Source: Catajapyx aquilonaris (lineage: Eukaryota). Taken from it: a stretch of DNA of 64,000 nucleotides. The notes beneath the pieces were generated by a model. That model made no database searches. It was not told where the DNA came from and was given only the letters and a program-made list of their open reading frames with translations. Each line of letters starts with the position of its first letter. Positions within the stretch are counted from its first letter, which is position 1. This document shows, piece after piece, positions 18,040 through 60,581 of the stretch. The stretch spans positions 1 through 64,000 of the forward strand of contig JYFJ02001014.1 in NCBI GenBank assembly GCA_000934665.2. The letters are read 5' to 3'. The position numbers and the translations under genes were made by a program.

Positions 18040-18293
18040 GTTCCTCTCTAATAATATGATGGAACATACAAAAAAATTTCCTCCAAATCACTGCTGTATC
18101 GATCACACTATTCTACATCACCGTAAGCTATCGACCACACTATTTCAAATCGACTAATGGCTACCAAACAGCATAGCGGCTATTTCAACAACGGACATTT
18201 TTTTTTCCAACATGGCGGACGTTTGTCCTTCTTAAACGTTCTTAAAATTCAGGTTAAAATTAGTTCCAGCCCGTTAGTTCCAGGTCGGAGGTC
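18040..18293. promoter_or_regulatory. Probable bidirectional promoter between NBAS and the THAP gene
   Basis: ATGs are 254 bp apart. DRE-like TATCGA motifs near 18097 and 18129; YY1-like AACATGGCGG near 18209. Confidence 0.6.
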
Positions 18294-36283: not shown

Positions 36284-37311
36284 TCTGCACACAGTTCCCA
36301 GCAACTGGTATCAGCATATCTGCAAAAAGGACCAACATCTGGGTTAATAATTACAGTCTTCAAGATGATATTATGAGTTAGTGAATCAAGTTCTATACTT
36401 TGCAAACAGTAGTTAAATAGCAAGAGAGGAAATCAAAGTATTTGTTCACCATGAAACTAATACGCATATAAGTTTGCACTATTCACACTTGCAGGTGGTT
36501 CCAGCACATCTGCTCATGATTCAACACTAAGCAGTATCTGTAACATTACGCATTTGCTACACAATGTACCAGCCACTCCTGAACACTTGTTCATTACCAG
36601 GTGCAGGACACACTGGCGTTGACCTCACTGTGCACCTCTCAATTTTTCCTACCCAAGGTATAGCAGGTGGAGGTTCTAATTTCGTACAAGTAAATATAGT
36701 GTGCTTGGGAAAAACCCTCTGAAATAAAAGGCACAACATACGCAGATTAATATTAACAAAGCATATGCAGCAGACGTGTTTGCAGGTCTGAAGGCCTTCA
36801 CATGTCATAGTATCAATAGTGTCAATAGAATTTGGTGGCCTAGGAAAATATGTGATATCACAAGTCTCACGATGGCAATGAGTTGGTTGATAAAGTTGGA
36901 AATGAGGAAGCAGTCCTAAAACAAAGCGTCCCAAATTATTCCTAATTACAGGCATTGTTAATCCACACACTGAGCAACAATTGCTACTTTCCTGTCTTTC
37001 TCTCCTGTCATGTTGGCAAAATAATACATTTTTATTATTTTTGAGAATTTGTGCAACATACTTTAACATTGAACACTCACATTGAAGTATTTTATGAGTA
37101 AGGCCACAAATATTGCGTTACTTGGTTCCACCAAAGATTATTTGACATTATCTCTAGCTCCTGAGACAATGGTGATTCAAATTTCTGAACAGAACATTTT
37201 AATCAACAATGGAAATACAATTGCAATGAATATGCCACATGTCCTAAATGTAAGATTTATAAAAATGACCATGAGTGGTTGTGAATAATGCAAAGCACTT
37301 ATATCCATTTT

Positions 37312-37760
37312 TTAAACACTGCCCCCTGTGTTTGACTCTAAATAACTTCCAGGAAAATGGTCAAAAAAAATAAAGTTACACATCGTTAGAAAGCTTGTTT
37401 AAATGTATGCAACATGTATGCGAGTTGTTTACCTATCTTCACTGTGTAATTTTTTATTGCACGAAGTACACGGAAAGGTGTCATTTTTTGACTTGTGGCC
37501 GAAGTTACGCAGCAAAATTAATTTTTTAATAGACACTTCTCAGAGGCCAAAAAATAGTGGGTGAGAAGTTGAGTCAGTGTGTTATGTAATTTTCGGGAGG
37601 GCGATAAAAAGTATGCAAATACAACAATGAGAAATTATTTGATGGCCCTAAATTACTTTACATGCATTAAAGATCCCAAGTAATTGCAGAAACAATCACC
37701 TACATTAATAAACATGACTGCTTTTTAGGAACTGCTTAATTTTTCAGCAATATTGCATGA
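37312..37760. repeat. PAM intron-1 segment duplicated at 43721-44787 (partly a TIR-element end)
   Basis: 37312-37553 matches 43721-43960, and 37549-37760 matches 44572-44787. Confidence 0.85.
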
Positions 37761-39387: not shown

Positions 39388-40426
39388 ATGACGCAGGTTG
39401 GGAGCTTCCTTTCGATGGGATGGCACGCCACTCCAGAAGGGAGGACGCACTTCCAGGGGCTGTACGAGAATGAGACCAAGAGGAGGAAGCAGTTTGGTAC
39501 ATATAAAACCACGATAAAACATAATTTAATGATGGTCAGCAGATGTCCTAAGAAGAAACGCCCTATTTATTGGTTTTAGGACGTTTCTTCTTGGGACAGC
39601 CCCCCAGGAAACATTTGGCAGCTTTATTTGATGATAGGACCATACAGACTGAGCAGCAACGCATTATGAGTGTGTTAATAATAAAATGTGATTCCAGGTG
39701 TGTTGGAGAAGCCTAGCTTGCCGTCGGAGGCTGAGGAATGCACCTACAAAGTGTTTGTGTCCGGAAAGGCAGGGGTTGGAAAGACGGCGTCGGTTTGCCA
39801 TTTGGCTGGGGTTGTGCCGCCCAAGAGCTACCACAGTACGTTGGGAATTCGGACGACTAATGTTTTCTGGCCGGCCAAAGTCTGCCAGCAGGTTATACTC
39901 TTCAAGGTTCAGCTTTGGGATGCGGGAGATGCGACGTTGAAGAAGTTTGCGCATGTCCTCACCGTAAGCTTGCTCTCTGGGAATTGCAAGAGTGGTGCTA
40001 ACAATTGCGTATATTGCAGGCTTGTAAAGAGAAGGTGGATGGTGTCCTGCTGACCTTCTCATTTACTGACCGAAGCACTTTCAGAGATCTGGTAGATGAG
40101 GTTAAGAGCATTTCCCAGTGGGCAGAAAAACCTGCAATCTTTGCCATTGGCACTAGGTTAGTATTTCAGACATAACAGGTAACTGAGAAAATGGCATGTT
40201 AATTCTGTTTCACACTCTGAAAAGGTTTGGGATGGCACCAGATGCTGAAGTATGCCAAGGGGATGTTGATAGTTTTGAGAAACAGTGGTCTATACCCATT
40301 CTGAAGACCAACAATCGGATGGTGACAGGTAAAGCTGACTTAGAGGAAGTTGCGCCTCTACTCAACACCATTTGCGAGCGGCTGTGGTTGAGGGAACAAG
40401 AACTGATGATTTCCAGGCAGAGATGA
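39388..40426 (+). CDS. CPLANE2: Ciliogenesis and planar polarity effector 2 (REM2- and Rab-like small GTPase 1)
   Basis: Exons 39388-39496, 39698-39963, 40020-40156, 40225-40426. W HATPEGR...FGVLEKP...YKVFVSGKAGVGKT...VFWPAK...QLWDAGDATLKKFAH...FSFTDRSTF...LNTICERLW closely follows the RSG1/CPLANE2 pattern. Confidence 0.9.
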
Positions 40427-40555
40427 AGACCACAAGTGCTTTTATCTACTTGTTTATTGTAAAGTTGGCAGTTAATTGAAATACATATTTTACATTTTCC
40501 CAATACACTTGTCATCACCACAACTAGTCTCACGTCAGTGATGATGGACAGCTTT

Positions 40556-42560
40556 TTAAAAGGCTTGGACGGCACTGTAGATTGCCACAAAAAGAAGGAA
40601 CCCTCCGATATAAATGTAACGCAAGAAGCGATCTGCAGACTGGGCATAGTACTTAGCGTACGCAGCAATGCCTGATGGCTTATTTTCATCCAGCTGGAAA
40701 TAAAGAGGAATATGTTATTGCCATTGAATATGGTGAAGTAAGTGAAAGGTTTGTTTCTGATCTGGATGGATAACTTACAGGTAGCTCATCCAAAACACCA
40801 AGGCGATGAACAATCACAGTTGCCAAGAGTGGTATCCAGTTGAATGTCAGGCACACAGCAGTCCATGTGTCAATTGCCTGAAATTAATACCGTTGAAAAT
40901 GTAGAGAGTGTTACAGGCTACATTTGCATAGGCTTGAATATTGCGCTTAAAGTACTTACAGTTGAGTAACGAGTGTGTGGCAAATGGCTCTTTGCAACCA
41001 GGAAAACAATGAAGTTGCAAACCATCATCAGTGACGCCAAGCGGAGTCGGACTCCAATTTCTGATAATTAAATGCACAGTATAGTATGAAACACTGAATA
41101 TCACCAAATAGCACTTATTATGGTAGCTGATATTTCAAAACCTACCTTTTGTGTCAATGAAGAAGATAATGTAGGCAATCAGGGTGAACACAGCAGTGGG
41201 AATGAACAGTGTTGTAAGGTAGTAGCCACAGTTTCTCTTATACTTGAACGTGAATTTTAGACGTCCATACTCTTTGCCTGCAAAAAAATTGTGTCATTGT
41301 TACTCTACAGTCTACAAACAATAGATTTGAGAGCTATATACTCTCTTGTATACTCTCTTGTATAGTAATTATCCTACCTGCCACATGTTCATATTCAGTT
41401 TCATATTCAGTGTCCAGAAGTGTCAGCTCTGCTGAAGAGCCCTCCACCAGATCTCCAGAGTATGAAGGCTTATTCTCCCAGTTAATCACACAATCCTTCA
41501 GAGTCATAGAATCTATAAATCACAACAAAAGAAGCATTTAGCCATCATGAACTGACTTTCAGAACATCCACCAACTTACATGATTCCATCATGATGGGAC
41601 ACTCTGGTTTGTCAAAAGGAAAGTTCTTGTATTCGGTTAAGCACGCAAAACGAATCTGCAACTTCTGACTGTAGAGGACTGTCCCGTCCTTGTCTATCCT
41701 GAGGAAAGAGCTTGGTCCTCCTGCTTGGGTGACCTGAATGGCGTTGACAAAGAACATGTCCGCAACCCATATGCGCTTGGGGCCATCCGGAAGTGCGACA
41801 CTGTCAGTAAGTTTTGTGACTTTCGAGGTCAAACGGTAGTCCTTCCAGTGCTGCCTCATGTACAAGTCGGCGGTCACTTGCTATAGAAAAAAGGGGTAGC
41901 AGGGCGTGGACGAAGGCTGCATGAATTAATCAATTCGGGACTAATAAATAATTGATCTGCCTGCAACGAGACCGATTTAAATGCGACCTACCATAGTTAG
42001 TGGGTCGAAGTCGTGCATCGAGAGTACGTACATCGAGACGTTTACAGACACTGGTTTACCTCCTGCGGGACAAATTGGTAATTAGAGGGGGGAAACATGA
42101 CCTGGAATTAGCAGCTGTGTACCTACCTTGATTAGGGAAAATCAGCGGGTTGTAATCCTTTGGAATGATGTCATCGAACCATGATTCAATTGCAAGGGAA
42201 TTTCTGCAACACAAAATATATGTATACTTATAGTCGCTATACATGGAGGTCGAATATTTATCATTTAAATATTATTGGCATTAAGATATTTTCAAGCAGG
42301 CCTATATTATCGGGTGGAAGAATAAATTTTATTAATAATATCTCGTTACGTAAGCATGTACTTTCCTGCCTAAGACTTCGATAGACCGGTCTCAGACTCT
42401 CACTCTGTGATTTTAAAATAGGAATAAAGGCATGCTGCGATGTACTCGTATTATTCCTCTCTCGAATAACCATAGTGTGAAACCCACCAATGCAATGAAA
42501 AAATGTGACTTACCCGACTGTGAAGACCAGAAGGACGAGGAGATATGAGTGAGCTGCCAT
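40556..42560 (-). CDS. Divergent Cys-loop ligand-gated ion channel subunit 1 (GABA-A/glycine-receptor-like scaffold)
   Basis: 9 exons. Signal peptide MAAHSYLLVLLVFTVG; WFDDIIPKDYNPLIFP; ADLYMRQHWKDYRL; IWVADMFFVN; GTVLYSQK; Cys-loop CLTEYKNFPFDKPEC (C-x13-C); M1-M4 with AIDTW and ADRFLRYIY. Confidence 0.9.
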
Positions 42561-43163
42561 GGTGACTCTCCTGAGGTGTTGTCACGAACGGTGTCGGTCG
42601 AGTTGTGATATAATTCGTCTCACAGTAGCCTCAATAAATAGTCCCTGCAAAGCCACTTGCCAAGAGCTAATATTAGCTCTTGCACTTGCGCTTTTTTCCT
42701 TCTCTTTCTCAGTAGTGTTTGTGAAGCGTAACTCTTTCAATTGAATAGACTCGCCCTATGTAGTAATTCTGGCTTATATTGCTATTCATATATAGAGTCT
42801 GCAAGAACCCTTGATCTGGAGGTCACTTCTCGGAATCTTTAGTTTATCACTCGGAATCCGATAGGTTTATTGGGAATGACGTCGTGAACACATGCTCTCC
42901 TTTGAAAAAAATAATCAGGCCATAATATGATAGGCAAATATGTGCTCTGGATTACCTGGAATTCCTTATCATTGGAAGGTTCTACTGAAAATTAAACGTT
43001 AAGCATAAATGGCACCAATTTATTGGCTTCGTGGTCACTTGCATAAATTATTAGTTTGTTATTGATGGTGATTGAATTCGAAATCCTGGACCATTTGGAA
43101 ATTGGCAGAAATATATTTACATTTTGTCGAGTGTTACATCAGCAATTTACTGCAATTTCAAAA

Positions 43164-43720
43164 TCATCCCAAATAAGTAGCGAAGAACACGATAACGAAC
43201 AAAATGAACGCAACGGGATAGAGTAGATACGACACCATGTCAGCCTTTTCGGAGATTTTTCCCAAAATTGAGCGGATGCTGCTGCTCTTGTCCCATGGGC
43301 GTAGCCAGGCATGGGCAGGGGGTGGGGCTGCCCCCCCCCCCAATCTTAGGGAAATGCAGAAAATTTCTGGAGATTTCAGAAAAACTGAAGGTTTTGAAGA
43401 TTTTTCTGAGCCTTCGGGGTCAAAATAAAGTAATCTAAAACAATTGTTGCTGAGACAGTTCCTTCCGAATCTTGCTAGGCAGTCAGACGGAGGATGAGGA
43501 CAGGTGGGGCCCTCCTGCCCCCTAACTAAAATCCTGGCTACGCCCATGTCTTGTCCTGAAATTGAATGACACATTTGAATGAGAAACGTGCCCATTTTGA
43601 TCAGCCAGATCTGTCTCACCTCTTCAGCTCCACTGCTTTTCATGCAGACAACAAAGAGACTCTCGCAAACCGCTCCGAAAATAAAGCAGAAACAAAATCC
43701 CGACCAAATGTCCAGAGCCT
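43164..43720 (-). pseudogene. Truncated duplicate of the last two exons (M3-M4) of LGIC subunit 3, disrupted by a MITE
   Basis: Matches 47559-47852 (ALDIWSGFCF...; KADMVSYLLYPVAF...). Upstream exons are absent and the last exon carries an insertion. Confidence 0.88.
43294..43548. mobile_element. hAT-type MITE with 16-bp TIRs and 8-bp target-site duplication
   Basis: TCTTGTCC|CATGGGCGTAGCCAGG ... CCTGGCTACGCCCATG|TCTTGTCC. The empty site is visible in the paralog at ~47680. Confidence 0.92.
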
Positions 43721-44310
43721 TTAAATACTGCCCCCTGCGTTTGACTCTAAATAACTTCCAGGAAAATGGTAAAAAAAAGTTACACATCGTTAGAAAGCTT
43801 GTTTAAATGTATGCAACATATATGCGAGTTGTTTACCCATCTTCACTGTGTAATTTTTTATCGCACGAAGTACACGGAAAGGTGTCATTTTTTGACTAGT
43901 GGCCGATGTTACGCAGCAAAATTAATTTTTTAATAGACACTTCTCAGAAGCCAAAAAATTCCCACTCTGACCCTTGGATAGTGCAAGTCTTTGTCTATCT
44001 AATGATACATTTCAAACTTAGAAATCGCAATTTGTGTACCGTAATCATAATTAAGTTAATTGTACTACCCAGTGTTCGCAGGGGGAATTCTTTGGCCTCC
44101 GAGAAGTGTCATAAAAAAATTCATTTTGCAGCGTAATGCCGGCAACTAGCAAAAAAATTACGCCTTTCCGTGTTCTTCTTGCGATAAAAAATTACACAGT
44201 GAAGATAGGTAAACAACTCGCATCATATATGTTGTGAAAACAAGCTTTCTAACTATGTATAATTCCTGGGAGCTATTGAGAGTCAAACACAGGGGCCAAT
44301 ATTTAAAAAA
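43721..44310. mobile_element. Element with long (~170-bp) imperfect inverted repeats
   Basis: CCCCTGCGTTTGACTCT...GTTAGAAAGCTTGTTT...TGCGAGTTGTTTACC.ATCTTCACTGTGTAATTTT...CACGGAAAGG (43730-43890) recurs inverted at ~44150-44310. Confidence 0.7.
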
Positions 44311-44787
44311 TGGATAGTAGCCTACAGAGTGAAGGTCAGGATGGGTCACATTTCGTGAAAGAAGGTGGCAGAAATTACAAGAAGGGGTTGGGCAGGCAAT
44401 ACATAATGTCTCTCAAATTGAATATACACAAACATTTGTTTGATGCACAAAATCTAGGTATTATCACTTTTATTCTCAGAATGCTTTGCTTTTCACCATC
44501 TCCATCCTATCCTTAATTCCACAACTAGGTTATCTCACATGGTAAGAAGGCTGCAACAATTATACACCCATAAAAAATAGTGGGTGAGAAGTTGAGTCAG
44601 TGTGTTATGTAATAATTTTTGGGAGGGTGATAAAAAGTCTGCAAATACAACACTGAGAAAATTATTTGATGGCCCTAAATTACTTTAACTGCATCAAAGA
44701 TCCCAAGTAATTGCAGAAACATTGACCTCCATTAATAAACATGACTGCTTTTTAGGAACTGCTTAATTTTCCAGCGATATTGCATGA

Positions 44788-44878
44788 TGACGTAGAGGAA
44801 GTTGCGCCTCTACTCAACACCATTTGCGAGCTGCTGTGGTTGAGGGAACAAGAACTGATGATTTCCAGGCAGAGATGA
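44788..44878 (+). pseudogene. Duplicated 3' fragment of the CPLANE2 last exon
   Basis: Copy of 40336-40426 (EEVAPLLNTICE.LWLREQELMISRQR*) with no upstream exons. Confidence 0.85.
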
Positions 44879-45007
44879 AGACCACAAGTGCTTTTATCTA
44901 CTTGTTTATTGTAAAGTTGGCAGTTAATTGAAATACATATTTTACATTTTCCCAATACACTTGTCATCGCCACAACTAGTCTCACGGCAGTGATGATGGA
45001 CAGCTTT

Positions 45008-46971
45008 TTAAAAGGCTTGGACGGCACTGTAGATTGCCACAAAAAGAAGGAACCCTCCGATATAAACGTAACGCAGGAAGCGATCTGCAGACTGGGCATA
45101 GTACTTAGCGTACGCAGCAATTCCTGATGGCTTCTTTTCATCCAGCTGGAAATAAAGAGGAACATGTTATTGCCATTGAATATGGTGAAGTAAGTGAAAG
45201 GTTTGTTTCTGATCTGGATGGATAACTTACAGGTAGCTCATCCAAAACACCAAGGCGATGAACAATCACAGTTGCCAAGAGTGGTATCCAGTTGAATGTC
45301 AGGCACACAGCAGTCCATGTGTCAATTGCCTGAAATTAATGCCGTTGATAATGTATAGAGAGTGTTACATACAGGCTACATTTGCATAGCCTGGAAGATT
45401 GCGTTTAAAGTACTTACAGTTGAGTAACGAGTGTGTGGCAAATGGCTCTTTGCAACCAAGAAAACAATGAAGTTGCAAACCATCATCAGTGACGCCAAGC
45501 GGAGTCGGACTCCAATTTCTGATAATTAAATGCACAGTATAGTATGAAACACTGAATATCACCAAATAGCACTTATTAGAGTAGGTGATATTTCAAAACC
45601 CACCTTTCGTGTCAATGAAGAAGGTGATGTAGGCAATCAGGGTGAACACAGCAGTGGGAATGAACAGAGTTGTAAGGTAGTAGCCACAGTTTCTCTTATA
45701 CATGAACGTGAATATTAGACGTCCATACTCTTTGTCTGGAAAAAAATGTGTCATTGTTACTCTATACAGTCTACAAGCAATAGATTTGAGAGCTCTATAC
45801 TCTCTTGTATAGTAATTATCCTACCTGCCACAGGGATCTTGGTTGTTTCATATTCAGTGTCCAGAAGTGTCAGCTCTGCTGAAGAGCCCTCCACCAGATC
45901 TCCAGAGTATGAAGGCTTATTCTCCCAGTTAATCACACAATCCTTCAGAGTCATAGAATCTATAAATCACAACAAAAGAAGCATTTAGCGATCATGAACT
46001 GACTTTAAAAGCATCCACCAACTTACATGATTCCATCTCGATCGGACATTCTGGTTTGTCAAAAGGAAAGTTCTTGTATTCGGTTAAGCACGCAAAACGA
46101 ATCTGCAACTTCTGACTGTAGAGGACTGTCCCGTCCTTGTTTATCCTGAGGAAAGAGCTGGGTCCTCCTGCTTGGGTGACCTGAATGGCGTTGACAAAGA
46201 ACATGTCCGGAACCCATATGCGCTTGTGGCCATCCGGAAGTGCGACACTGTCAGTAAGTTTTGTGACTTCCGAGGTCAAACGGTAGTCCTTCCAGTGCTG
46301 CCTCATGTACAAGTCGGCAGTCACTTGCTATAGAAAAAAGGGGCAGCAGGGCGTGGACGAAGGCCGGATTAATTAATCAATTCGGGACAAATTGATCTGC
46401 CTGCAACGAGACCGATTTAAATGCGACCTACCATAGTTAGTGGGTCGAAGTCGTGCATCGAGAGTACGTACATCGAGACGTTTACAGACACTGGTTTACC
46501 TCCTGCGGGACAAATTGGCAATTAGAGGGGGAAAACATGACCTGGAATTAGCAGCTGTGTACCTACCTTGATTAGGGAAAATCAGCGGGTTGTAATCCTT
46601 TGGAATGATGTCATCGAACCATGATTCAATTGCAAGGGAATTTCTGCAACACAAAATATGTACTTATAGTCGCTACATGGAGGTCGAATATCATTAAAAT
46701 TGGCATTTAGATATTTTCAAGCAGGCCTTCTATACCGCGTGTAAGAATAAATTTTATTAATAATATCTCGTTACGTAAGCATGTACTTTCCTGCCTAGAC
46801 TTCGATAGACATGCCTCAGTCTTTGATTTTAAAATAGGAATAAAAGCATGCTGTGCTGCATTCCTCCCATGAATATAGCCACATAGTGTGAAACCCACCA
46901 ATGCAATGAAAAAATGTGACTTACCCGACTGTGCAGACCAGAAGGACGAAGAGATATGAGTGTGCTGCCAT
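45008..46971 (-). CDS. Divergent Cys-loop LGIC subunit 2 (recent paralog of subunit 1)
   Basis: Same 9-exon structure as 40556-42560; IWVPDMFFVN; CLTEYKNFPFDKPEC. Reading frame and splice sites appear intact. Confidence 0.9.
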
Positions 46972-47558
46972 GGTGACTCTCCTGAGGTGTTGTCACGAAC
47001 GGTGTCAGTCGAGTTGTGATATAATTCGTCTCACAGTAGCCTCAATAAATAGTCCCTGCAAAGGCACTTGCGCTTTTTTTTTTCCTTCTCTTTCTCAGTA
47101 GTGTTTGTGAAGCGTAACTCTTTCAATTGAATAGACTCGCCCTATATAGTAATTCTGGCTTTTATTGCTATTCATATAGATTATAGACTCTGCAAGAACC
47201 CTTGACCTGGAGGTCACTTCTCGGAATCTTTAGTTTATCACTCGGAATCCGATAGGTTTATTGGGAACGGCGTCGTAAACACATGCTCTCCTTTGAAAAA
47301 AATAATCAGGCCATAATATGATAGGCAAATAATTATGTGCTCTTGATTACCTGGAATTCCTTATCATTGGAAGGTTCTACTGAAAATTAAACGTTAAGCA
47401 TAAATGATACCAATTTATTGGCTTCGTGGTCACTTGCATAAATTATTAGTTTGTTATTGATGGTGATTCAATTCGGAATCCTGGACCATTTGGAAATTGG
47501 CAGAAATATATTTACATTTTGTTGAGTGTTACATCAGCAGTTTACTGCGATTTCAAAA

Positions 47559-50311
47559 TCATCCCAAATAAGTAGCGAAGAACACGATAACGAACAAAAT
47601 GAACGCAACGGGATAGAGTAGATACGACACCATGTCAGCCTTTTCGGAGATTTTCCCCAAAATTGAACGGATTCTGCTGCTCTTGTCCTGAAATTGAATG
47701 AAACATTTGAATGAGAAACGTGGCCATTTTGATCAGCCAGATCTGTCTTACCTCTTCAGCTCCGCTGCTTTTCATGCAGACAACAAAGAGACTCTCACAA
47801 ACCGCTCCGAAAATAAAGCAGAAACAAAATCCCGACCAAATGTCCAGAGCCTGTGATTAAATGGCGAATAAATCAAGCGAAAAGTGCGCAAAATAAGCGA
47901 CATGAACTGTACCGTCGGATGTGACGTGTGTGGCAAGTGATTCTTCATTTCCGACGAAAGCACAGCCGCACACAGCAAAAGCACGGAGCTCATCAAAATC
48001 CGAGGTATTGGAACTGAATCATAATAAAGCTCATTAAAAAATTCATTTCGATTACTCTTCAGTCTCATTATTTGGGACACTGACCTGACGAACTCATGAA
48101 GAATGTGAAGTACTCTAGCATGACTATGGTGGTCAAAGGCATTATGATAGCTCGGATGTAATAGCTGCTCAATCGGTTCCACAGCATTGTCAGTCCCAAA
48201 CGGCCATATTCACCTTTGTTAAATTTAAAAATGACATATCCCATAAGTTAATTTGAAATAATTGCAACAGATAAATTGACACGCACCTGTGTGGAGACTC
48301 AAAATGGTGCTGCTTTGTCGATGTCCCACAAATAAGAGTGACTTAACATACATGCCAGTTTCGGTAAATCCGACTGCATTTTCACCTCTCCATGCAATGA
48401 GTATTCGCGACGTGTTCATTCCAACTGTAAACAGCACAATTTGTTAAACGACATGTCAGAATAACAGAATTTGGTCGCTACTTACAAGATTCGAAATCCA
48501 AGTAACACTCCAAGGAATCAAACGGGAACGAGTGGTCTAACGGTTTGCACTGGAACTTCACTGTTATTCTAAAATGATATTGTGCATGAATATTAGCATA
48601 TATTATTAGCACTAATTTGTTGCATAATATAAGATACGAAATAAATACTTTTGACTGTATAATATTGTTCCCTCAGGATCTATTGAGAGAAATGATTCTC
48701 CTTCTATTTTGCTTGTAGAATATGAATTTGGTATAAACAGATCCGGGATCCAAATGTGGTCTTCCATTTTCTTAACACGTAAATTGGATTCCAGCTTTGT
48801 ATTTTGACGGGTCAACCTGGGGTCAACCCATGCCTGACGAAAGTACATGTCTGCAGTCATTTCCTATACGAAAAAAATCAAATGAGACTTTAAAATCACT
48901 TCTAGGAGTATTGTAAATGTTTCACAATAGCAGTGCAATTGCATGAAAACGTGAATTAAAGCCAAGCAGTGAAAAATATGCGGAGCGAGTTAGCACACCC
49001 ACAGCTTGCACCTACATGTTTTATGTACTATTTAAAATGTAATTTCAGAAAGCTATTGATTTGCATTGCTTTCCCTTCAAAGTTGAGTAAGAAAATAATG
49101 TACGTCTGCCATTACTTTTATCATCAGACAGCACTTTTAGAATGCTGTATAACAGAAGAAAAAGCAGGACATTTTTCAAGCAGAAATTATGGTATATTTC
49201 ACATTCCTTTGCTAAAATTACCCTCGTGCGACATTCATTCACTGAATAAATAACTAAGTCAAAATTGCACTGCTTCCTCACTTCTAACGATGGAGCAGTG
49301 AGTCTAATGAACTCAGATCTCATGTTTTATAATGTGAAAGGGCATTATAATGATAGCGTTTTAAACAAATCCCTTTGAAGTTAACTGAAAGCAATTGATT
49401 GTTCCACTGGACTTGGTAAATTTAGGCGAAAGGTATACCTGCCACGTGGTTCACATGATTATCATGAACAAAGAACAGTCACTAACAATAATTAAGTTTG
49501 GTGACGTTAGACTATATTAATTTACAGTCAGGTAAAAAAAAGATGTACAATTATACTTGCGACAAGCCGACCGGGGTTTTTAAAACGCCCTTCAATTGAA
49601 CCCAAAATTAGGTGAATGACTTCCTCTTGACCCACTAATGGGATCTGTGAACCCAGTTCGTTGGATATAGTTCTAGACATTTGGAGCACGGAAGTGGTTC
49701 ATTTTACACCCTGCTATTTGAAGCGTGCATACCATTAGCAAGCGTTGAAGAGTATGGTACCTAAAGTCTTATGAGAGACAGGTTATAGCTTGGGTTATAG
49801 CATCGGTGTAGATCAGTGCAAGCACATTGATTCTTCGGCTTTAAAGCTTGACAAATGGCCTCGCAATAGAAGCGGACTTAAGTGGTTTATGAATGAGCTT
49901 CTCTTGGAATACAGGCTGCACCTTTCAAAGAAGCAATTACCGGTCTACTCCATGCCACTGACACGAAATTATCATAACTCACATTGCTGAACGTGCAATA
50001 TCCGTAGAAGGAAATCACGTACAAGGAGACGTCAACATGGACCGGACCTGCAGAGAGGTTGGGGCTGTATAACTATATGGCTATAAATCCAAACCACTCA
50101 TTGTCATACCTCCGTACTGATCCGGAGCCAATAGCGGATTGTAGTCTTTGGGTATAATAGTTTCAAACCAATCTCTCTCAGCAGCGACTCTGTCAGATTA
50201 AAAATTAAGTAAGTGGAGAAAAAAAACCTCTGCATGGAACCGGAAAGTATAAGGAAAGGTTGGTCTCTACCTGGCGACTAGAATGCAGAGGAGCAATTTG
50301 GTGGCAGCCAT
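47559..50311 (-). CDS. Divergent Cys-loop LGIC subunit 3
   Basis: Exons from 50311 (MAATKLLLCILVAR), ~50190-50110 (DWFETIIPKDYNPLLAP), ~50047-49984, ~48863-48648 (ADMYFRQAWVDPRL...IWIPDLF...GTILYSQK), ~48568-48486 (CKPLDHSFPFDSLEC), then loop C, M1, M2 (PIPRILMSSVLLLCAAVLSSEMKNHLP), ALDIW and M4 to the stop at 47559. Confidence 0.88.
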
Positions 50312-52155
50312 GTTGCAGAAGAACTAAACTGGCCCCACTCTCGGCGAGTATGTGAGAGACTGGCCTTCATCCAACTTAACTGGTCACCCACCACAATGGG
50401 TCCCCTTGAAAATGTCCCACTTGGGATTTGGCTACGTCCTTGATGACAGCTTGTTTTCATATCACACATTATATCCTATACATGGTGTGGATAAAGTTTG
50501 TGACAACCAGCTGATGGCGTGCGACGGTGACGTAACCTAGTTCTGGCCGTGTTTGAGTTTTGCATTGGGCTTGGGTGTCCACGAGTTTTGGCACCGCCTG
50601 GCACTGCGGAGATGCAAATTGCAGCTCCAATAGCAGAACCATGCAGGAGTAGAAAGCCCGTTTTCATAAAATGAGGAGGGCCTAATCAACCTATACCTCA
50701 CGTGAAAATGAGAGAAAATTGCTTCGTAAAATTATCATTCTGTGGTTAATTTTGCATCTGATTTTACTAATATTTGCTCTTTAGCGAATACCTATAGCTC
50801 TGAAAACCGCTTGAATATGACCAAATGCAACAATAAGAATCGCATTAGCCTTGGTCTTAATTGCTGGAAACGACAATCAAACCAGGAACGAGCTATTGAG
50901 TGACGCACTCTACCGTTATTTAACGCATGATTTACATAAGCTTGGTTCTGTCTGTGGCTTAGTTGCGATATATTGCAGATAGATTTGCATGCAGCACAAG
51001 TCTTCAAATGAAAATATGCCGAGCAGATTAATATAATACTTTTGGAAAATAAAAGGCATGAAACATACCCTGCAGTGTGGTCTGTCAAAAATTCAGCGAA
51101 ACGCCTTTGCAATCAACTGGATTAGACAGTATTTTCGGTTCCATTATTGCATAGGATTTTAAGTAACTTGAATTTTGCTGCATGAAATGAATTGATTTAT
51201 TCCGGAAAGTGGTCAATGACTACGCTGTAAAAAGGGACCATTGCAGTAATATTGATAAACCATCTTAAAAAAAAGTGTCCCTTATTCCTTCCAGGCAAAA
51301 AGGAGAGGCCTATTCTCTTATATGTTACATTATGGGACATACTGTTTCCAGCAAGTGCTAAGAGAGTTTATTAATATTCAAACGTCGATGCCAAGAATGC
51401 TCTAATTTTATCGGACACCCTGTACACCCTTTTAATGAATAGGGGCGTTGTGTTTGAATGCGAGATATAGGCGGCAGTCTCCAAATTACTGGCGCGAGGA
51501 CCGCCGATTATGTAAAGCTGCGCGAGGGGGAGTGTTAAAATGTGTTGATTGACCACGTCTTTCATCAGGAAGGGTTGAATATGTTTAGAAGACGCTTCAT
51601 TGGGCGAATTAAGGGACACGCAATGGACAAGATTAAAAACGACCTCGTCTTGAAAAGGAAGTCGAGAGATGCCACTGCGAAGGAACCACAGTCGCATATT
51701 ATTGCGACACCATCAGGCTTCCGATATACTCATTCTCAACAATGTGACCTTCACGGATGACTACAATATTATTGACGGTCAAGCCTTGTTACCAACCCGA
51801 TCTTATCAAATGGCGTCCTCGTCGTATTTCTAGAACTATATACATTATGCGGCATGCAAACAAGCTGCTGGGCTCCGTTTCGGGTCAGGTGAATCCCGAA
51901 GTCCCAACATTTGCGTATAAAGGGGCTGCTTAATTTGGGTCGAAAGGTCAAAACGTCACGTCCAGGAGGCTATTCGTCCTGGGGGTAAATCACCACTTTA
52001 TGATAAACCCCTTCGTTATCTGGTAGGAAAAGGCCGAAAGGGCTCTCCCGTTTCGACGTCCCGTCGGCATCAATCTCATGATCAAAGTCTCTCAGTTCCT
52101 TCTCATCTCGTTACCTACGGAGAACTAAGAAGCCTTAGCTGCTCATTTCCGCAAA

Positions 52156-54813
52156 ATGAAGACCTTTGTCCGACTTTTTCTCGCCACGTTGCTGCTTGGA
52201 TGCTGCTGGTAAATGACTCTTGTTTTGAACTCTTGTGACGCGACAAATTAATTTTATGAAGGGGATCAAAGAAGCAACCTTTACTTTGTGAAGGAAGAGA
52301 ATATTTTGCGCTTTCACCAGGTTGATTTTTAATCTCTTAAAATATTACGAGCAGTTTTTTTTGTCACACATGTATATTCCGTCTTTCTGGCAAAAAGGTT
52401 GCCAATTATGTCGCAATATTTCCAATCATCTGTCTTGGCCGAGTCCCCAAATGGCATGAAAAGATACATCCATTAAATTTTAACAAGTACAAAGCACAAA
52501 AATGTTGTCAGAATTGTACAAAATTATTACAGTATAATTATTGGACAAAATTGTAGTACACCTACAAACACATGAAATCACTTCTGCAACAGATAAATAA
52601 CATGACATTCAGTGGCCACATTCCATAGTGTTTCTTCTTCATACTCGATATATTTTTATTTTAAAAGGGCCAGAAATAATGACCTTCCCCAAGGACTCAT
52701 TCCGGATGATTACAACAAGAACGCTATGCCTGTTGACAAATCAGGTAAGCACAATAAAATAAAATAAACATTACAACCAAAACATTGCAAGATGATGGTG
52801 CCCATAATATTATCTCGTAATTAATGTAGCACATATAAGGAGTTAATTAACTCTAAGTGTTCATTTCACTGATTCGTTGTATACGCAGGGATGGTCCAGG
52901 TGAAAGTGTCTGCCACGATTCTGGCAGTCAGAGATTTCGATCCTGCTTCCTTGGTGAGTGAACCCGATGCATTTGCAGGAGCTCTTTTCGACAGGCAATT
53001 GAATTAAAAGGTCCGGACTGTCTTCTCTCTCCTCTTCTTCTTTTTTTGTGGCACCTATAGGAAGTAACTGCCGACTTGCAGATGAGCGAGAGCTGGTTGG
53101 ATTCTCGTCTGAATGCAAGCAATGTCACAATTACCAGCGGGCAACATGCGGTCTGGACCCCTGACTTGCGCTTCCCTAATGCAATTAAGCTTTATTACCC
53201 TGGAGATCATTACGACCAAATCATGATCGGAATTAATGGATCTATCACCTTTGATCAAAAGTAAGGAGAGGGCTATATATTTTGCAGCTTACGCTTTGAA
53301 ATATTTTGAGTGTTTTCCGGTATAATTTAAGTGGTTTGTAACTCAATATTCTCACTGTGGTTGCACTTTTCCCTATCGATTTTTTGTTTCATATTTGCAT
53401 CGAATTTGCCTCAACTTCTGACGACTCGATTAGGTTTTTTCAAAAAAAAAATATATGCGTAGTACAGTGTGAACTTTATTTTTTGTCACTTTTTGAGATA
53501 AGATCTGCACTGAAAATATTTTAGAGTGTATACTTTTTGATGTACTAATTCCATTTGTTTGCTGTGTCAGGGTCTTGGTACGAGTCCCTTGCAAAACTTA
53601 CCTGACGCGCTTTCCTTACGATGAACCTCACTGTAACATTACAGTGGAGCCGTGTAAGTAAATGGCCACATTTGTCAACAGCAATGAAAAAATTATTATT
53701 ATTATTATTCGCCTAAACAATTGTGCGTATTTTCTATTTTGTTTTATAGCTGTGTACAGGAGTGACAGGGTGAATTTGACTTGGGAGAAGCCAGTGACAA
53801 TGGCAGAAGACATTCGCTCACAAGCAGCCCCAGACATGATCTTGAAATCTGTTAATGGATCCGGTGTCAACGGCAGTAAGTTCAGCGTCAGTTACTGTAC
53901 ACGCATTCCCTCGTAACATACGCAATTGCTTCATCCAACAGATGTGACAAAGAGCAGATTGGTGATTACGATGGACTTTTCTCGTGCTTATGGATTCTAC
54001 GTACAAACTGTATTTCTACCAGTGGCCATCTTCACTCTCATTGCGTGTTTGTCATTCTTGCTCGATTCGCAAGGTAAATACCATATGTCATAGTCTGTCT
54101 GCCGTTTTATAGGCTGTTGAACTTTCACTCCTGATAAAGAGATAAACTCTTCTGATCATGTGAGTTACGACCTTGACTTGTCCGTCGGTTCATGCTGCTA
54201 ATTTGATTCGAGCTAATCATCAGCTACACTTAAGATTATCTCTTTTTCATCCGCAGAACCGATGCCTCGAATTCTTCTGATCACCATGATGATGATGTGT
54301 TTGATCAATATTTCTCAGAAGGTTCGGGTCGACCTCCCCAAAGCCTCATACTGCACGGTAATATAGCTTCTGATTGCAACACCCACCCATAAAAACCTAG
54401 ACATCTATTGACCTTTAACTCACTGTGACAGTGAGGTTGCTTCCAATGACAGTCGGCCGTAAGAATGAAACACAATCATGTCATTCCTTCCAGGGATTAG
54501 ACGTATGGACTGGCGCATGCTTCACCTTCATGACCATTGCTATGATTGAGACCGTTCTGGTCAAGAAATTTGGCGGAAGTTCAGGTCAAAGCTCTGGCGA
54601 AGAAGGTGGTGGCGAGGAGGTAACTTCGCTTGTAATAATAATTATTCATTTTTATTATAATAATAACAATTTTGTTTCCTTTCTTAGAGTAAGTCTGGCG
54701 CACAGGGAGCCATGCAAAAAATGGCCAAATGGGGTGATCGGATTCTGATCATTGCCTATCCCATCGGCTTTGTCGTTTTCTCCGCCATTTACTGCGCTGT
54801 TTACTTGAGCTAA
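52156..54813 (+). CDS. Divergent Cys-loop LGIC subunit 4
   Basis: Exons from 52156 (MKTFVRLFLATLLLGCC), ~52669-52745 (LIPDDYNKNAMP), ~52889-52953, 53061-53260 (WLDSRL...VWTPDL...GSITFDQK), ~53571-53653 (CKTYLTRFPYDEPHC), ~53750-53875, ~53942-54072, ~54257-54357 (M2), ~54494-54619 (GLDVW), 54688-54813 (GDRILIIAYP). Confidence 0.88.
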
Positions 54814-55204
54814 ACGTCTCGTGCAACGGCCTGGAATGCGATTAAATGAAGAATACGTTCCTAGAATCCATTCACTGTTTTTTTCCAGTACGCTGCAGAT
54901 TACAGTCACAAAAAAATTTGGCAGCAATGTTGGTTACATAAAGCGAAACTGTCAGCTCCTATGATTTATTGGTGTTTAATAAAGAGTTCTGATAAATGTA
55001 TTGGTGTGAAAATAAATTGCGCAACTTTTTCGTGAAACTACTTTTTAAAAATTGCCTTCTCCTTGTATAGTCTCTGGATTATGCAGAAGTGGCGCTTCAT
55101 AGCCACCAATAACAAACTGCAATCGCATTCAATGATGTGGGTCACAGTGATTTATCTGTGTCGCCGTGTGCAGGCAGCAGCAGCAGCAGAGTAGCAACCG
55201 GAGC

Positions 55205-57872
55205 ATGGCTCAAGTTTTTCTACTTGTGTTAGGATGTTTTCTGCTTGCTGCCAAGTAAGCAACGTTTTACACTATATACTGTCCCTAAATGGTTCATTTA
55301 AACAGCACCTATATGTAACGGAACCTGTTCCGGAACCAGCTCACTATTTGGTTGCTAAGCACTCTGTTGCCCAGATGTTCTGTGCCAACAAAATTGAATG
55401 ATGTTGACTCGTTATTTTACTTGGTGTCAACATAATGGGACTATTGTTGACATGAAATGAGATGAGTTGGAATAATTACTCTGCCGATAGCAACCAAATA
55501 TATAGTGAGCTAGTTCCGGAACGGGTTCGGTTTGTGTAAATGGCACCTGCACATAGGTCATACTGGTATATATTTTTTGCAGCTTAATTTTTATGTCGGT
55601 GTGGTTACTTACAACTGCGTCTAAATGGGACGAAGGAAGTCGCAACTGTGCTGACGATCTTGAACGAGTCATTGACATACGACAGATTACAATATCATGC
55701 TTTGTTACGGATTGCTTTGAGGCGGAACCGAAGTAAGAGTTAATTATGGCATTAAAATTACCTGCAGCACTACATTCCACAATAATTGCAGCGCAACCGT
55801 TGGAGCACCTCTTGTAAGCTGGTTTGATGGGTTTATTCCTAATGAATATAACAAGTATTTATCACCTGCAGCAAATAACAGTAAGTACTATTACCAGATG
55901 CTTCATAGTAGACAATACAGTATTAATTTCATTTTAAATGTGATTTTCTCACTTGCGTTGTGTTGGTTGCAGCACCAGTGGATGCCAAAGTGTCTGCGTA
56001 CGTCCTGAGTCTGAGCGAATTCGATGAAATTAATTCCGTAATAATTATGCAACATTAAAAAACAATGCACACGAACTGCATATTATTGTGGGCACCAAGC
56101 GCAATAATGTATGGCTGATATCAGCACAACACTAACAGTTTCTTTTCTCCATTCTTTTGCAAGGCAGTTGATGTCGTGATGTACATGAGGCAGCATTGGA
56201 CGGACCATCGCTTGAACTCGAAGTTCACGAAAGCGAATGGCAGCGTGTCTTCTCGAATAGGTCACGAAATGGTGTGGATACCTGACCTGTTCGTTCAGAA
56301 TGCTGTTCTGGTCAGAAAGCCGGATGGACCCAACGCGTTCTTAAAGGTGGAACCCGATGGATCTATCACTTACAGCCAAAAGTACGTACTCATCAGTAGG
56401 CCTACTGATGAGAAAACCTGGAATTGTCCAATTGTCAAATTGCAAAAAGTATTAAACGGAACTAATAAATTCTTGTAAATGACAAGGGGGAAGAAATTTG
56501 ACTTTCCTAAACTTCTTTGGCATTGGCCACTTCATATGCAAATGAAATTTCTTTTTATCTAATTTTTGTTTTAATTTTTGGTAGTTTAATTGATGCCATG
56601 CTCTTGTATGTATACATAATACCGCATAATGTGTCTCTCTTTTCCAGAGTAAATGTGCGAGTTCCTTGCGTAACGGAATACCATCACTTTCCATTTGATA
56701 CACTACGTTGCGGAGTAGTATTTGAGTCATGTATGCGCATTTGGATCCTTTATAATCGCCTGATATACTCTGTTCATTGCTATAACTACTCTTTCAGTTG
56801 CATTAACGACTGGTGAGTTCTCGCTGTCGTGGTTGTCAAAGCCGGGTTATTCAGACCATATCGAGGAGAAAACGTTACTGCCATTGAGGCTACTTAATTT
56901 TATTCATGAGAACAGAAGCTTCATCTCTGAGGGAGGTAATTTGGTATTTCACATGTCTTTAAAAACTGAGCTGGCAGTAACCTTCCTTAATTTATTTAAC
57001 GCAGGAAGGTACGATCAGGTGTCAATGGAATTCATATTCGCCAGGGCAATTGGCAGCTACTTCAAAAGCGGTATTCTACCTGCTATTGGCTTCGTAGCAG
57101 TAGGATACGTCACTTTCTTCTTGAGTCTCAAAGGTAAGGCGACATAATTACGCATTTTTATAAAAAAACGGGCATATTAACCACAAATATTATCCAATTA
57201 AGATGTGACCTCTCGTATTGAACTTTGCTCCATGGTGATCCTGGCGAGTGCCTTAGTGTCTATCAACTTGAGATCTCAACTGCCACGGACGTCCTTCGCG
57301 GTAATCTGCATAATGTCAAGGGAGACACATTTTCCTTGTTCATAATTTAATTGCACCACATCACATTCCAACACTCAACTTTGCAGGCTATCGACATATG
57401 GTCATTAGTGACGTCAGGATTCATTTCACTCTCCATCTGGGAGAGCGCATTGGTGCATAATCTGCACGCCAACAAATCGGTAAGATATTGCTTATTCCTG
57501 TTTATTATCTCCATCAGTAAGGGTGGTCATACCTCACACGTGTACCCAGTTCATTAGCTGTACTGAACTTATATAGATTATTTCAGAAAGAAAAAAATTA
57601 ATCACACCTTGACTGATTTTTCTCAAGCTGGCAAATCATTTCAATAATTACACTTGAAATTTTCACTCTAAAGATTTAGGTTAATGGAGATTTGGGCAGT
57701 GAACCACCCTGTACATTCTGGGGAAACAAGTGCGTGCGATCTTAAATGTCATTCCCTTTCTTTATTGCCCATTTTCCAGGAAAGGCGACATGTTCCGGAT
57801 CGAATTTGTCGCGTCCTCTACCCTGTTTGTCTGGTCATCGTAGGCGCTGTCTTGTACGGAGTGTATACGTAG
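55205..57872 (+). CDS. Divergent Cys-loop LGIC subunit 5
   Basis: MAQVFLLVLGCFLLAA; SWFDGFIPNEYNKYLSP; MYMRQHWTDHRL; VWIPDLFVQN; GSITYSQK; CVTEYHHFPFDTLRC; M2 TSRIELCSMVILASALVSINLRSQLP; AIDIW; PDRICRVLYP; stop at 57872. Confidence 0.88.
55317..55532. repeat. Imperfect ~45-bp inverted repeat (MITE-like) in LGIC5 intron 1
   Basis: AACGGAACCTGTTCCGGAACCAGCTCACTATTTGGTTGCTA vs TAGCAACCAAATATATAGTGAGCTAGTTCCGGAACGGGTTCGGTT. Confidence 0.7.
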
Positions 57873-58913
57873 GACACAGCCTCAATTATTAGCGGCGGAC
57901 GAACACATGGCCTGCTTCCTAGGCAGGAGTCTCTCCCATCGATACATTTCATCATGCCGAATCAACATAGGTTCCTTTTGTAATTGGCCCATTAGGCGAT
58001 TCATTCAGCTCATCAAGTTATTACCATATTCATGGGGGAGGCTCCATCAGGAGTGGGCATACTTTCATAAACTTTTTGTGCGCGTGTATTGGGAAGCCAC
58101 CGCCATATGTTATTCAGCAATTTGAAGCAGGCATGTTAACTGTACGAATTATGGCAATAAAGGTACACCCTGAAATAACAGGAGAGAAAAATATTTTTTT
58201 TAGTGAGGTCTTCTGGACTGCATGTAACTGCACACATGTTTTCAGAAGATAGTGTTGCTCTAGTTGAAGGCTCTTACTTATTGATATAACATTGGAATTC
58301 CTGCTGGTCATACAATCCAAATACAGCTACTGTATATCGACGTTTCCCTACACTTGCTGCTAAGTACCGTATTTATTTTATCAATATAACATGCATGGAT
58401 GCCAATAATGTTACCACTCAGCAGAATTTCCAAACATTTAATTTGAGCCAAGTATAAGACTGCTGTATTTTTTTACATACTGTACCAAAACATAAAATGA
58501 ACTGCAGATTTTCAATCTAGAACTTTGCATAAATGTATTTCAAGGATGTGACATCATAATATCACAGTAATCTAATTATTTTCTTGCACCTTGAACCAAC
58601 TTATATGAAGCCTGTCAAGCAAGAGGACCTCCCACTTTATCAGATGTTCATTGTGGACAGCACTGAACACTCCCACCGCAACCCTCCTCTTCCTCCAGTG
58701 ACAGGGTCGTCAACTCCCTAATCGAAGAGGCACAGCCCAGCTTCCCAAATATCGTTGGTGATTGCAGTGATGAGCATGAAGGCCATGGGCGGGCCAAATG
58801 AACATAAAGAAATTGGCGTGTTGTCTTTGTCTCATACACAGTTGGGCTGCAGCCAAACTTTGGGACGTTAGCAACCACACTCCACGCTCTGGAGGAAAAG
58901 GGTGTGGTCCACC

Positions 58914-60581
58914 ATGGAAATGGCCAAGTGCTTCCTGGCTGGGATACTCCTGCTGTCATCCGGGTGAGATGGTGGATACAGCAATAATGGTGCCACGTTG
59001 CATACTTTTGTGTATAATTTCTCAGGGTGCATACTGCGGAGAATTTTTGGTACGATGCTTTCATTCCTGCCACGTACAATCCACTGAGAAGTCCTGCTTT
59101 TGGAGGTAAGTTGTGCATCACTAGTATAATGATGAGATGAAGTGAGCAAGTTCTCGCTATTATTTGCAGGGTCAGTCCAAGTGGGCATAGTTGTGTGGAT
59201 CCTCTCATTTCATGACTTTGACATTGACAGTGCGGTAAGGCATAGTTTGCTACATGTGATCCGAGTCATTCTAAAATCTAATTTCACTGCAGCAATTAAG
59301 TGCAGACCTGTACTTGGGTCAGTACTGGAATGAACCTAGACTGACTTCAGATAAGACAAGGGTTGCAGGGCAGTTGATACTACCCCATGGTGAGAAGTAC
59401 CTGTGGATACCCGACACATTCATCCCAGAAGCTGTTCAATCCAAGAAATCTGATGGACCCAATTCCCTCGTGAGGATTGACCCTGATGGGACTGTGTTTT
59501 ACAGTCAGAAGTGAGTCAATACATGAAACATTGCGTCAGTCTGTTGTCATTATAATTTGTATTACATTGCAGGCTCCAGGTTCGAATTTTGTGTGACATT
59601 TCATATGTCAAGTTTCCATTCGATGAAGTCTGCTGCACAATGCCATTTGAATCCTGTAAGTGTAACGTATCAGCAGTGGTCTTGTCTTACTCAAATAACT
59701 TAAACATTTCAGTCTCAATGAATACCTCTCGGTTACACTACTATTGGAGGGAAGTTGGAGGTAATCTCACCAAAGCTGAAGATGTACGGCCAGACATGCG
59801 GCTGATAAGGACAGAACAAGCAGCCCACAATGTCTACATGGCTGCAGGTAAGTGTACTTTTCAATGTCAAATGCTGCAATTACAGCCTGCTCGATTTTCA
59901 GATGAGTACAGTAGGTTGGAGCTGATATTATTCCTGAGACGATCACCAACATACTACGTTCACTCACTGATGCTTCCGCTTGGTGCATTTGTAGCACTAA
60001 CCTATTGCACTTTCTTCATGAGCATCAAGTCCCCCACACCAAGACTCCTCTTGAATTCCGCAATGCTTCTGTCAGCTCTTTACGTCACAATGGAGATGAA
60101 AAATCACCTGCCGCACACTCCTTCTTGGACGGTACGAGTTATGAAAAAATAATGTGGATAATCCATCTCAAATTTGCAATGATATTTTTAGGGCATGGAC
60201 ACATGGACTGCCGCATCCTTTATCTTCATGATGACAGCAATGGCTGAAACCATTCTGGTCATATGTGGAAATGAACCTGACATGTCCGAGGTAGTAATGT
60301 GCACTAAAACACTAGAAACCCATGCACCATTTGCTCGCATACATTGCACACATTTTGAGTATCCTGGAGCGAATGAGGCTTAGAAGTTCAGCAATTTTTT
60401 TACAATTTTCAATTCAGTTCAGCAATTTACTTATAATAATGCTTTATTACAGGAGAAGCCTGGAAAAGTCAAGTCCTTCATACAGAAGAATGCCGGAAGG
60501 GCAGACAGAGTATTTCGTATCGGGTACCCAATCTCCTATGCCCTGTTCATCATCATATACTGCGGAGCTTACCTTGGTTAA
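58914..60581 (+). CDS. Divergent Cys-loop LGIC subunit 6
   Basis: MEMAKCFLAGILLLSSG; FWYDAFIPATYNPLRSP; ADLYLGQYWNEPRL; LWIPDTFIPE; GTVFYSQK; CDISYVKFPFDEVCC; M2 TPRLLLNSAMLLSALYVTMEMKNHLP; GMDTW; ADRVFRIGYP; stop at 60581. Confidence 0.88.

Follow-up and report, generated by a model that had tools for sequence, protein, structure and literature searches.

Do two young copies of a ligand-gated channel gene that differ mostly around the presumed agonist site record adaptation to a new ligand, or merely tolerated change on a surface that was variable already? The question is raised by genes A and B, a tandem pair encoding Cys-loop receptor subunits in a 64,000-nucleotide stretch of the Catajapyx aquilonaris genome (positions 1 to 64,000 of contig JYFJ02001014.1, assembly GCA_000934665.2; hereafter the window), for which an original prediction read from the sequence had proposed diversifying selection on ligand specificity soon after duplication. 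We found that the difference between A and B is tolerated divergence, not demonstrated adaptation. In our judgment it is somewhat likelier than even that the pair is a young duplicate under purifying selection in which constraint was released on the loop C face, with much of the rewriting due to a single slip and A persisting as a working variant of shifted sensitivity. So read, there is nothing exceptional in the pair as a young duplicate: change has been quicker on the variable ligand-side surface than in the pore.

Two intact genes and the residues that separate them

The coding sequences of A and B (Table 1) are equal in length (1101 nt) and free of internal stops, and 16 of 16 introns are GT-AG. 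Exon 4 of each matches the ligand-binding domain PF02931 (A, 71.8 bits, E = 7e-20; B, 80.7 bits, E = 1e-22; cut-off 26 bits), and both proteins carry the Cys-x13-Cys loop with FPxD (C145-C159), the loop B ES, the loop C Tyr, the Arg before the first membrane helix (M1), and the Pro residues of M1 and of the M2-M3 segment. The loop A WxPD motif is present in B; A has Ala for Pro. A signal peptide and four membrane helices were read from the translations and from alignment to P0006, the sole close relative among the 150 matches listed of 1,576 at E ≤0.001 (1.84 billion representatives searched). The PAR motif (-2' to 0' of M2) occurs in 21 of the 65 other rows of a 67-row alignment, made from matches of 300-620 amino acids (aa) after ten long or repetitive ones had been set aside, and is lacking in A, B, P0006, and the neighboring paralogs C to F. 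The nearest solved relatives of A/B exon 4 and of P0006 belong to the GABA/glycine branch, and judged from sequence A and B are putative channel subunits on the GABA/glycine side of the Cys-loop family. M2 of both (40960-41060; 45418-45518) departs from the Ser/Thr/Leu pattern seen in the other aligned subunits, with 2' Arg, 6' Leu, 9' Val, and 13' Ile; given these residues, the pore properties of A and B may be unusual.

Codon comparison of the two gene models identified 17 differing residues: 2 in the signal peptide (positions 8 and 13), 12 of 206 in the extracellular domain (ECD; 85, 99, 105, 128, 162, 205-208, 211, 218, and 222), and 3 of 140 in the membrane half (248 in M1, 325 in the short M3-M4 loop, and 348 in M4). 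The 12 extracellular differences of the original prediction were thus counted exactly, its "about 2" in the transmembrane and cytoplasmic half came near the true 3, and the signal-peptide pair had gone unmentioned. Taken as residue counts, the contrast between the ECD and the membrane half is not significant (Fisher P = 0.11 two-sided, 0.08 one-sided), nor is it when the clustered patch described below is counted as one event (P = 0.16-0.22).

Most of the extracellular differences lie in the hairpin formed by beta9, loop C, and beta10, whereas 85, 99, and 128 fall outside the principal loops. We mapped positions onto a structure model of P0006 (mean predicted local distance difference test score 89.8; 40% identical in the ECD); it places helices at 229-252, 258-281, 291-322, and 327-364, beta9 at B residues 195-209, the hairpin tip at 210-211, and beta10 at 212-225, and it is the basis for putting residues 205-207 in beta9. 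Three of the seven hairpin differences, 205-207, are the product of one length-neutral microduplication in A, in keeping with the earlier observation of a local duplication in loop C of this copy that preserves frame and length. A second 12-nt tandem duplication, in intron 5 of A, lies about 25 nt from the exonic one and indicates that slippage has been active in this region. Mutation clusters of this kind need no selection in principle, although the source models inverted template switches and the repeat here is direct (PMC5453318). Intron 5 as a mutational hot spot was considered and rejected: its 3 substitutions and 3 indels in 87 nt are not clearly above other introns.

Constraint, clustering, and the geometry of the pocket

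Neutral change between the copies was gauged from introns (0.051 over all of them, 43 of 849 aligned sites; 0.044 over introns 2-8, 25 of 574) and from silent sites (0.049), with a pooled value of 0.040, and by these yardsticks the ECD and the membrane half are both constrained. The proportion of differing replacement sites (pN) in the ECD is 0.0355 with the patch and 0.0213 without it, below the intron values of 0.044-0.051; outside the patch, 10 replacements compare with 19-24 expected under neutrality (P = 0.001-0.02). In the membrane half pN is 0.0097 (replacement-to-silent rate ratio, omega, about 0.2), with 3 replacements against 12.5-15.7 expected. Length-changing indels are absent from the 1101 coding nt, where introns 2-8 predict 11.5 (P = 1e-5). 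A table of replacement and silent changes by domain gives P = 0.035 with all bases counted and 0.10-0.19 with the patch as one event. The ECD does outpace the membrane half, as had been proposed, but it does so because the membrane half is more constrained. Diversifying selection across the whole ECD finds no support, with dN/dS not set above 1 (omega 0.65-1.03 under all settings) and replacements under the neutral expectation; a domain rate not elevated over introns, the outcome that the original prediction had itself named as speaking against selection, is what these counts give.

Only the loop C hairpin rises above the neutral rate. Residues 200-222 hold 5 of 10 ECD events (P = 0.003 for the fixed window, 0.065 for any 23-codon window), or 4 of 9 if residue 208 is part of the patch (P = 0.012 fixed, 0.26 scanned), and scan-corrected P values span 0.04-0.26 overall. 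The hairpin carries 4 single-base replacements where 1.8-2.2 are expected, about twice the neutral rate (P = 0.10-0.18), an excess not distinguishable from neutral change with a sequence pair; with the patch included, hairpin omega reaches 1.8-2.3. Differing sites fall at columns that vary across the family (rank-sum P = 0.01, 65 relatives), Pro105 excepted, and among B to F and P0006, divergence within residues 200-222 exceeds that of the remaining ECD (0.79 versus 0.67).

Alignment to GABA-A beta3 and RDL places residues 162, 205, 211, 216, and 218 at GABA-A beta E153, K196, T202, R207, and S209; the HMMER alignment of beta9 has a two-residue gap against beta3 and none against RDL, and the beta numbers were counted from landmark residues. 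Sixteen of 65 relatives have Cys at 205 as well as 216, which fixes the cross-strand register. The proposed concentration of differences on the principal face is borne out by 162, 205, 211, and 218, and of the selection proposal this concentration stands while an above-neutral ECD rate does not. On the outer sheet, 162, 205, 207, 218, and 222 all point to the same side, and three of these positions match E153, K196, and S209. In GABA-A beta subunits, E153 locks loop C via K196 and R207, flanked by S209, and the beta2 E153A substitution alters binding and gating (PMC12785432). By homology, B has Glu162 beside Arg216; in A, Glu162 is lost, Glu205 is gained opposite Arg216, and Lys218 and Lys222 lie opposite Glu203 and Asp199. 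The charge pairs of A look coherent rather than random, with 218 and 222 unpolarized.

The other conspicuous change is the loop A Pro, present at position 105 in 65 of 65 other aligned subunits. This Pro faces the subunit interior; the glycine receptor (GlyR) P96A mutant is functional with a raised half-maximal effective concentration, and Pro-to-Ala is without effect in GLIC (PMC9607081). A natural receptor with WKSD, Dm-DopC1 of Daphnia, shows that an arthropod Cys-loop channel can work when the Pro of WxPD is missing, and restoring the Pro raises its sensitivity 2-3.5-fold with the ligand profile unchanged; it differs from A in being a nicotinic-like dopamine-gated cation channel with Ser, not Ala, and in not being a young duplicate (10.1101/2025.10.31.685654). 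By analogy, loss of the loop A Pro and of the beta7 Glu that locks loop C should alter agonist potency and gating, not abolish the channel, so that A most likely still works, with its sensitivity shifted and probably lowered, and is able to co-assemble with B or other paralogs.

Site likelihoods favor B as ancestral at 105 (+4.5), 248 (+4.0), 162 (+2.1), and 205-207 (+1.3 to +1.8), and a quick tree divides the branch as 0.052 for A and 0 for B. A thus appears to be derived at these positions, while the asymmetry as a whole does not reach significance. No close outgroup to the pair emerged from the homolog searches.

Duplication, transcription, and competing explanations

Self-comparison of the window revealed one large direct repeat, 40336-43293 plus 43549-43720 against 44788-47852, 93% identical. 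Both A and B retain the full upstream region, and the unit truncates two neighbors, gene C and a convergent small-GTPase-like gene. The junction repeats 37311-37760, from which it follows that the start of the unit originally lay at 37311, where a high-copy inverted-repeat element ends; copy 2 subsequently lost about 2.6 kb. Depth runs into the thousands across 43571-44292, and a genome search found these two copies of the A/B gene in the assembly and no others. Three of three DNA runs, all from one sample that probably also gave the assembly, agree: the unique contigs of the two flanks terminate at 40370 and 47823, in each case exactly 30 bases inside the breakpoint (40341 and 47852, respectively), which is where a branching assembly graph would break them, and contig depth within the unit is 1.5-1.6 times that of the flanks. 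The duplication is real, not an assembly or allele artifact. Extra copies of B, suggested by an all-B-type collapsed exon 4 contig in the three DNA runs, were dropped as a candidate, since adjacent bubbles are not independent.

Some minor features of the unit may be recorded here. The 37.3-kb copy of the junction segment is short of 612 bp, with a 7-base microhomology at the joint. A miniature inverted-repeat transposable element (MITE) interrupts the gene C fragment; its 8-bp target site is that of what we presume to be a hAT-type element. Upstream of A, an insertion of about 25 nt at 42661-42691 carries a perfect 22-nt palindrome, with a short direct repeat alongside, and resembles the footprint of transposon excision or hairpin repair. 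Between the copies, intron 1 (42230-42480) differs by 11 indel events and by several patches in which more than one base is replaced, far above other introns.

Expression was assessed in run X5, a second study that we took as RNA from spliced joints only. Six contigs, all at least 99% alike, have joints at predicted introns: introns 5-8 of A were seen spliced, a contig with A-type exon 4 carries the Ala codon 105, and another spans the spliced intron 5 of A with A-type loop C. The alternative that copy 1 is unexpressed is therefore contradicted by spliced A contigs. Of the six contigs, four were available individually and a fifth through its joints; residual depth in two bins over B fits the sixth, with a side ratio over the B loop C of 1.27 versus 1.28, and by this depth arithmetic over bins we infer that a B-type loop C transcript is present as well. 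Contig depths of 108 (A-type) and about 74 (B-type loop C) were not used to rank expression, and the lack of X5 cover over exon 1 of both A and B was not used as evidence. At codons 85, 345, and 348 the A-like contigs read as B, and two of the 17 differing residues may therefore be polymorphisms. Spliced pieces of gene C are also present in X5.

A tandem duplication starting from the end of the high-copy element copied one member of an orphan Cys-loop cluster together with its whole upstream region, and both copies are still intact, transcribed (for B presumably so), and held by purifying selection over most of the ECD as well as the membrane half. We propose that constraint was released mainly on the hairpin and its beta7 neighbor, the most variable surface of the clade, where replacements have accumulated at about the neutral rate or somewhat above and one replication slip has rewritten three residues. 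Several observations weigh against this release of constraint, and some of them point to positive selection having retuned the ligand site, with the microduplication and the changes at 162, 208, 211, 218, and 222 fixed for a new ligand preference in A or in both copies, as in octopus chemotactile receptors; we regard this as possible, though less likely than not. The hairpin stays enriched after weighting for family variability (P = 0.005-0.03), and outside the patch it has 4 single-base replacements and no synonymous change. Broadly drawn loops A-C hold 6-7 of 9-10 ECD events (P = 0.001-0.003) and narrowly drawn ones 3-4 (P = 0.016-0.06), with limits for these counts set after the data were seen. 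The cross-strand pairs 205-216, 203-218, and 199-222 are all of opposite charge in A and none are in B, and the A-ward asymmetry is not significant (twice the log-likelihood difference, 2.75; 9 of 17 sites favor B as ancestral). Retuning is further favored by the fixed-window clustering (P = 0.003-0.012), the hairpin omega, the shared outer-sheet face with its three positions at the E153, K196, and S209 of GABA-A beta (PMC12785432), the expression of A, and the strong differences in loop C among the six paralogs (13-30% identity to B for C to F). Against it stand an ECD replacement rate below neutral, a hairpin excess and scan-corrected clustering that do not firmly exceed chance, and the fact that 3 of 7 hairpin differences are one mutation of a kind that needs no selection (PMC5453318).

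A decaying A, still transcribed and yet misfolded or unresponsive, would account for the loss of a Pro kept in all relatives and for most strongly derived states sitting in A, and it also draws on 5-HT3 receptors, which lose expression with the equivalent Pro-to-Ala change (PMC9607081), a further point against a working variant. We nevertheless consider decay very unlikely: A has neither frameshift nor stop, every splice site is intact, the membrane half is strongly constrained, the exonic slip preserved length exactly, and the Ala codon also occurs in the contig of the second study and is therefore not a private defect. Gene conversion homogenizing the rest of the pair and sparing loop C, so that the contrast would reflect conversion tracts and not replacement rates, is suggested by the B-type letters in X5 contigs on A and by DNA contigs with A-type letters at two B 3' positions. 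These shared letters can be explained by ordinary polymorphism or contig collapse, no identical tract exceeds 177 nt (P = 0.37, and P = 0.28 for the three longest), events are evenly spread along the unit, and synonymous divergence shows no dip in the membrane half (0.055, against 0.029-0.043 in the ECD), all of which makes conversion highly improbable. Least probable of all, we would give scarcely any chance to A and B being alleles of one gene assembled in tandem: 93% identity could be reached in a very polymorphic species, and no contig among those listed covers the whole stretch, but the graph branches at both breakpoints, depth is raised, the neighbors are truncated, the 37.3-kb segment is paralogous to the junction, and the assembly holds only two copies. 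Tolerated divergence under purifying selection thus stays our preferred reading, and the pair offers a natural experiment in which two putative expressed subunits, 95% identical, differ at the loop A Pro, the beta7 Glu, and the loop C tip.

The orphan cluster and other genes of the window

The larger value of the locus lies in the cluster itself, six orphan subunits without the canonical anion filter. Genes C to F (47559-60581) lie within 14 kb beyond A and B and are much older, 29-39% identical to B in the ECD, with shared intron positions and short M3-M4 loops. The six genes and P0006 form one clade (Shimodaira-Hasegawa-like approximate likelihood ratio test, 100) in a quick tree search on 67 proteins, in which all branches are long and the clade is not firmly placed among other subunits. 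P0001-P0005, P0007, and P0008 were rejected as close relatives, since their high scores came from repeated domains, not closeness. Word-index homolog searches returned 0 of 54 candidates with exon 4, only P0006 itself (1 of 730) with P0006, and again P0006 (1 of 2410) with the clade alignment, while a metagenome scan found two distant loci (38-39% identity) among 220 pattern matches. Protein-atlas neighbors belong mostly to arthropod clusters. Other loci in the genome resemble what we take to be RDL, LCCH3, and GRD.

The best sequence matches of exon 4 and P0006 are of the RDL/GlyR type, and the P0006 model superposes on these at TM-scores of 0.81-0.83; P0006 is, however, only 18-24% identical to them, the clade lacks PAR before M2 and has very short M3-M4 loops, and A and B have Arg at 2' with hydrophobic 6' and 13' residues. 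Comparable in arrangement and divergence are the Insect Group I CLGC subunits (Drosophila CG7589, CG6927, and CG11340), very divergent members of the anion branch whose copy number varies by lineage and which can lie in tandem, as do three in 10 kb of the Tribolium genome (PMC4938653), again described as tandem and divergent elsewhere (PMC12309072); here there are six genes in 20 kb, and no named Insect Group I member appeared among the 20 names looked up of the 150 matches listed. Cephalopod chemotactile receptors likewise combine a lineage-specific Cys-loop expansion with differences concentrated at the ligand pocket, but they are nicotinic-derived, with site-model positive selection, known ligands, and sensory expression (PMC11526382), whereas all top matches put the present clade on the GABA/glycine branch. 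The likeness of A and B to chemoreceptor families would be one of analogy. That the six genes and P0006 are an undescribed arthropod family for chemosensory or environment sensing, sprung from the GABA/glycine branch in parallel to the cephalopod receptors, and that the 12-nt slip with a few same-face changes in A versus B rebuilt the charge network locking loop C and switched the ligand, strikes us as quite doubtful. If the cluster does sense outside chemicals, it would be a second origin of Cys-loop chemoreceptors. Our literature search, for the most part of papers outside subscription, found none on the clade or on loop C selection in arthropod Cys-loop duplicates.

PF02931 exons occur in further tandem arrays, several genes per 5-27 kb, on contigs C6011, C2887, C7542, and C2600; these are not close kin of the clade and are possibly an expansion of nicotinic-type subunits. 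The convergent small-GTPase-like gene (39600-40560) ends at 40427 and has a weak Roc match; we presume a resemblance to CPLANE2/RSG1. One X5 contig joins it to the 3' end of gene A, so the transcripts may overlap tail to tail. Between 28600 and 37100, two sets of NHL-repeat exons on opposite strands (29655-30284, +; 33476-34480, -) and copper monooxygenase domains suggest a gene for a peptide amidating enzyme and possibly another for a second lyase.

Table 1. Features of the window
Feature	Positions	Strand	Description
Gene A (copy 1)	42560-40556	-	9 exons, 366 aa, Cys-loop subunit
Gene A exons	42560-42514, 42203-42127, 42062-41992, 41880-41580, 41512-41378, 41277-41146, 41060-40960, 40877-40779, 40693-40556	-	
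Gene B (copy 2)	46971-45008	-	9 exons, 366 aa, Cys-loop subunit
Gene B exons	46971-46925, 46643-46567, 46502-46432, 46327-46027, 45959-45825, 45735-45604, 45518-45418, 45329-45231, 45145-45008	-	
Differing part of A hairpin (beta9-loop C-beta10)	41243..41399	-	codons 204-222 across intron 5; 7 of 12 ECD differences
Tandem microduplication, A exon 5	41388..41411	-	12 nt replacing 12 nt; residues 205-207 (beta9) changed in one event
Second tandem duplication, A intron 5	41341..41364	-	12 nt, about 25 nt from the exon event
Codon 105 of A	41761..41763	-	Ala replaces loop A (WxPD) Pro; B (46208-46210) retains Pro
Codon 162 of A (beta7)	41590..41592	-	Met, against Glu in B; at the position of GABA-A beta E153
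Duplicated unit 1	40341..43719		last-exon end of convergent small-GTPase-like gene, gene A, dead 3' fragment of gene C
Duplicated unit 2	44793..47852		fragment of small-GTPase-like last exon, gene B, true 3' end of gene C
Junction	43720..44792		high-copy inverted-repeat element and unique DNA, paralogous to 37311-37760
MITE	43294..43548		255 bp, 16-bp terminal inverted repeats, 8-bp target duplication; 8 nt into last exon of gene C fragment
Gene C	47559..50311	-	intact divergent paralog, 359 aa
Gene D	52668..54813	+	divergent paralog, open frame to stop, first exon not located
Gene E	55792..57872	+	divergent paralog, first exon not located; last-exon model ends 57843, stop read by eye
Gene F	58914..60581	+	intact divergent paralog, without the pre-M2 intron of the other five
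NBAS/Sec39 gene	8765-18100		long exons
THAP/P-element-like open reading frame	18492-19325		
Long terminal repeat retroelement fragment	20500-21600		protease and SH3 domains
PEX11 gene	60943-62750

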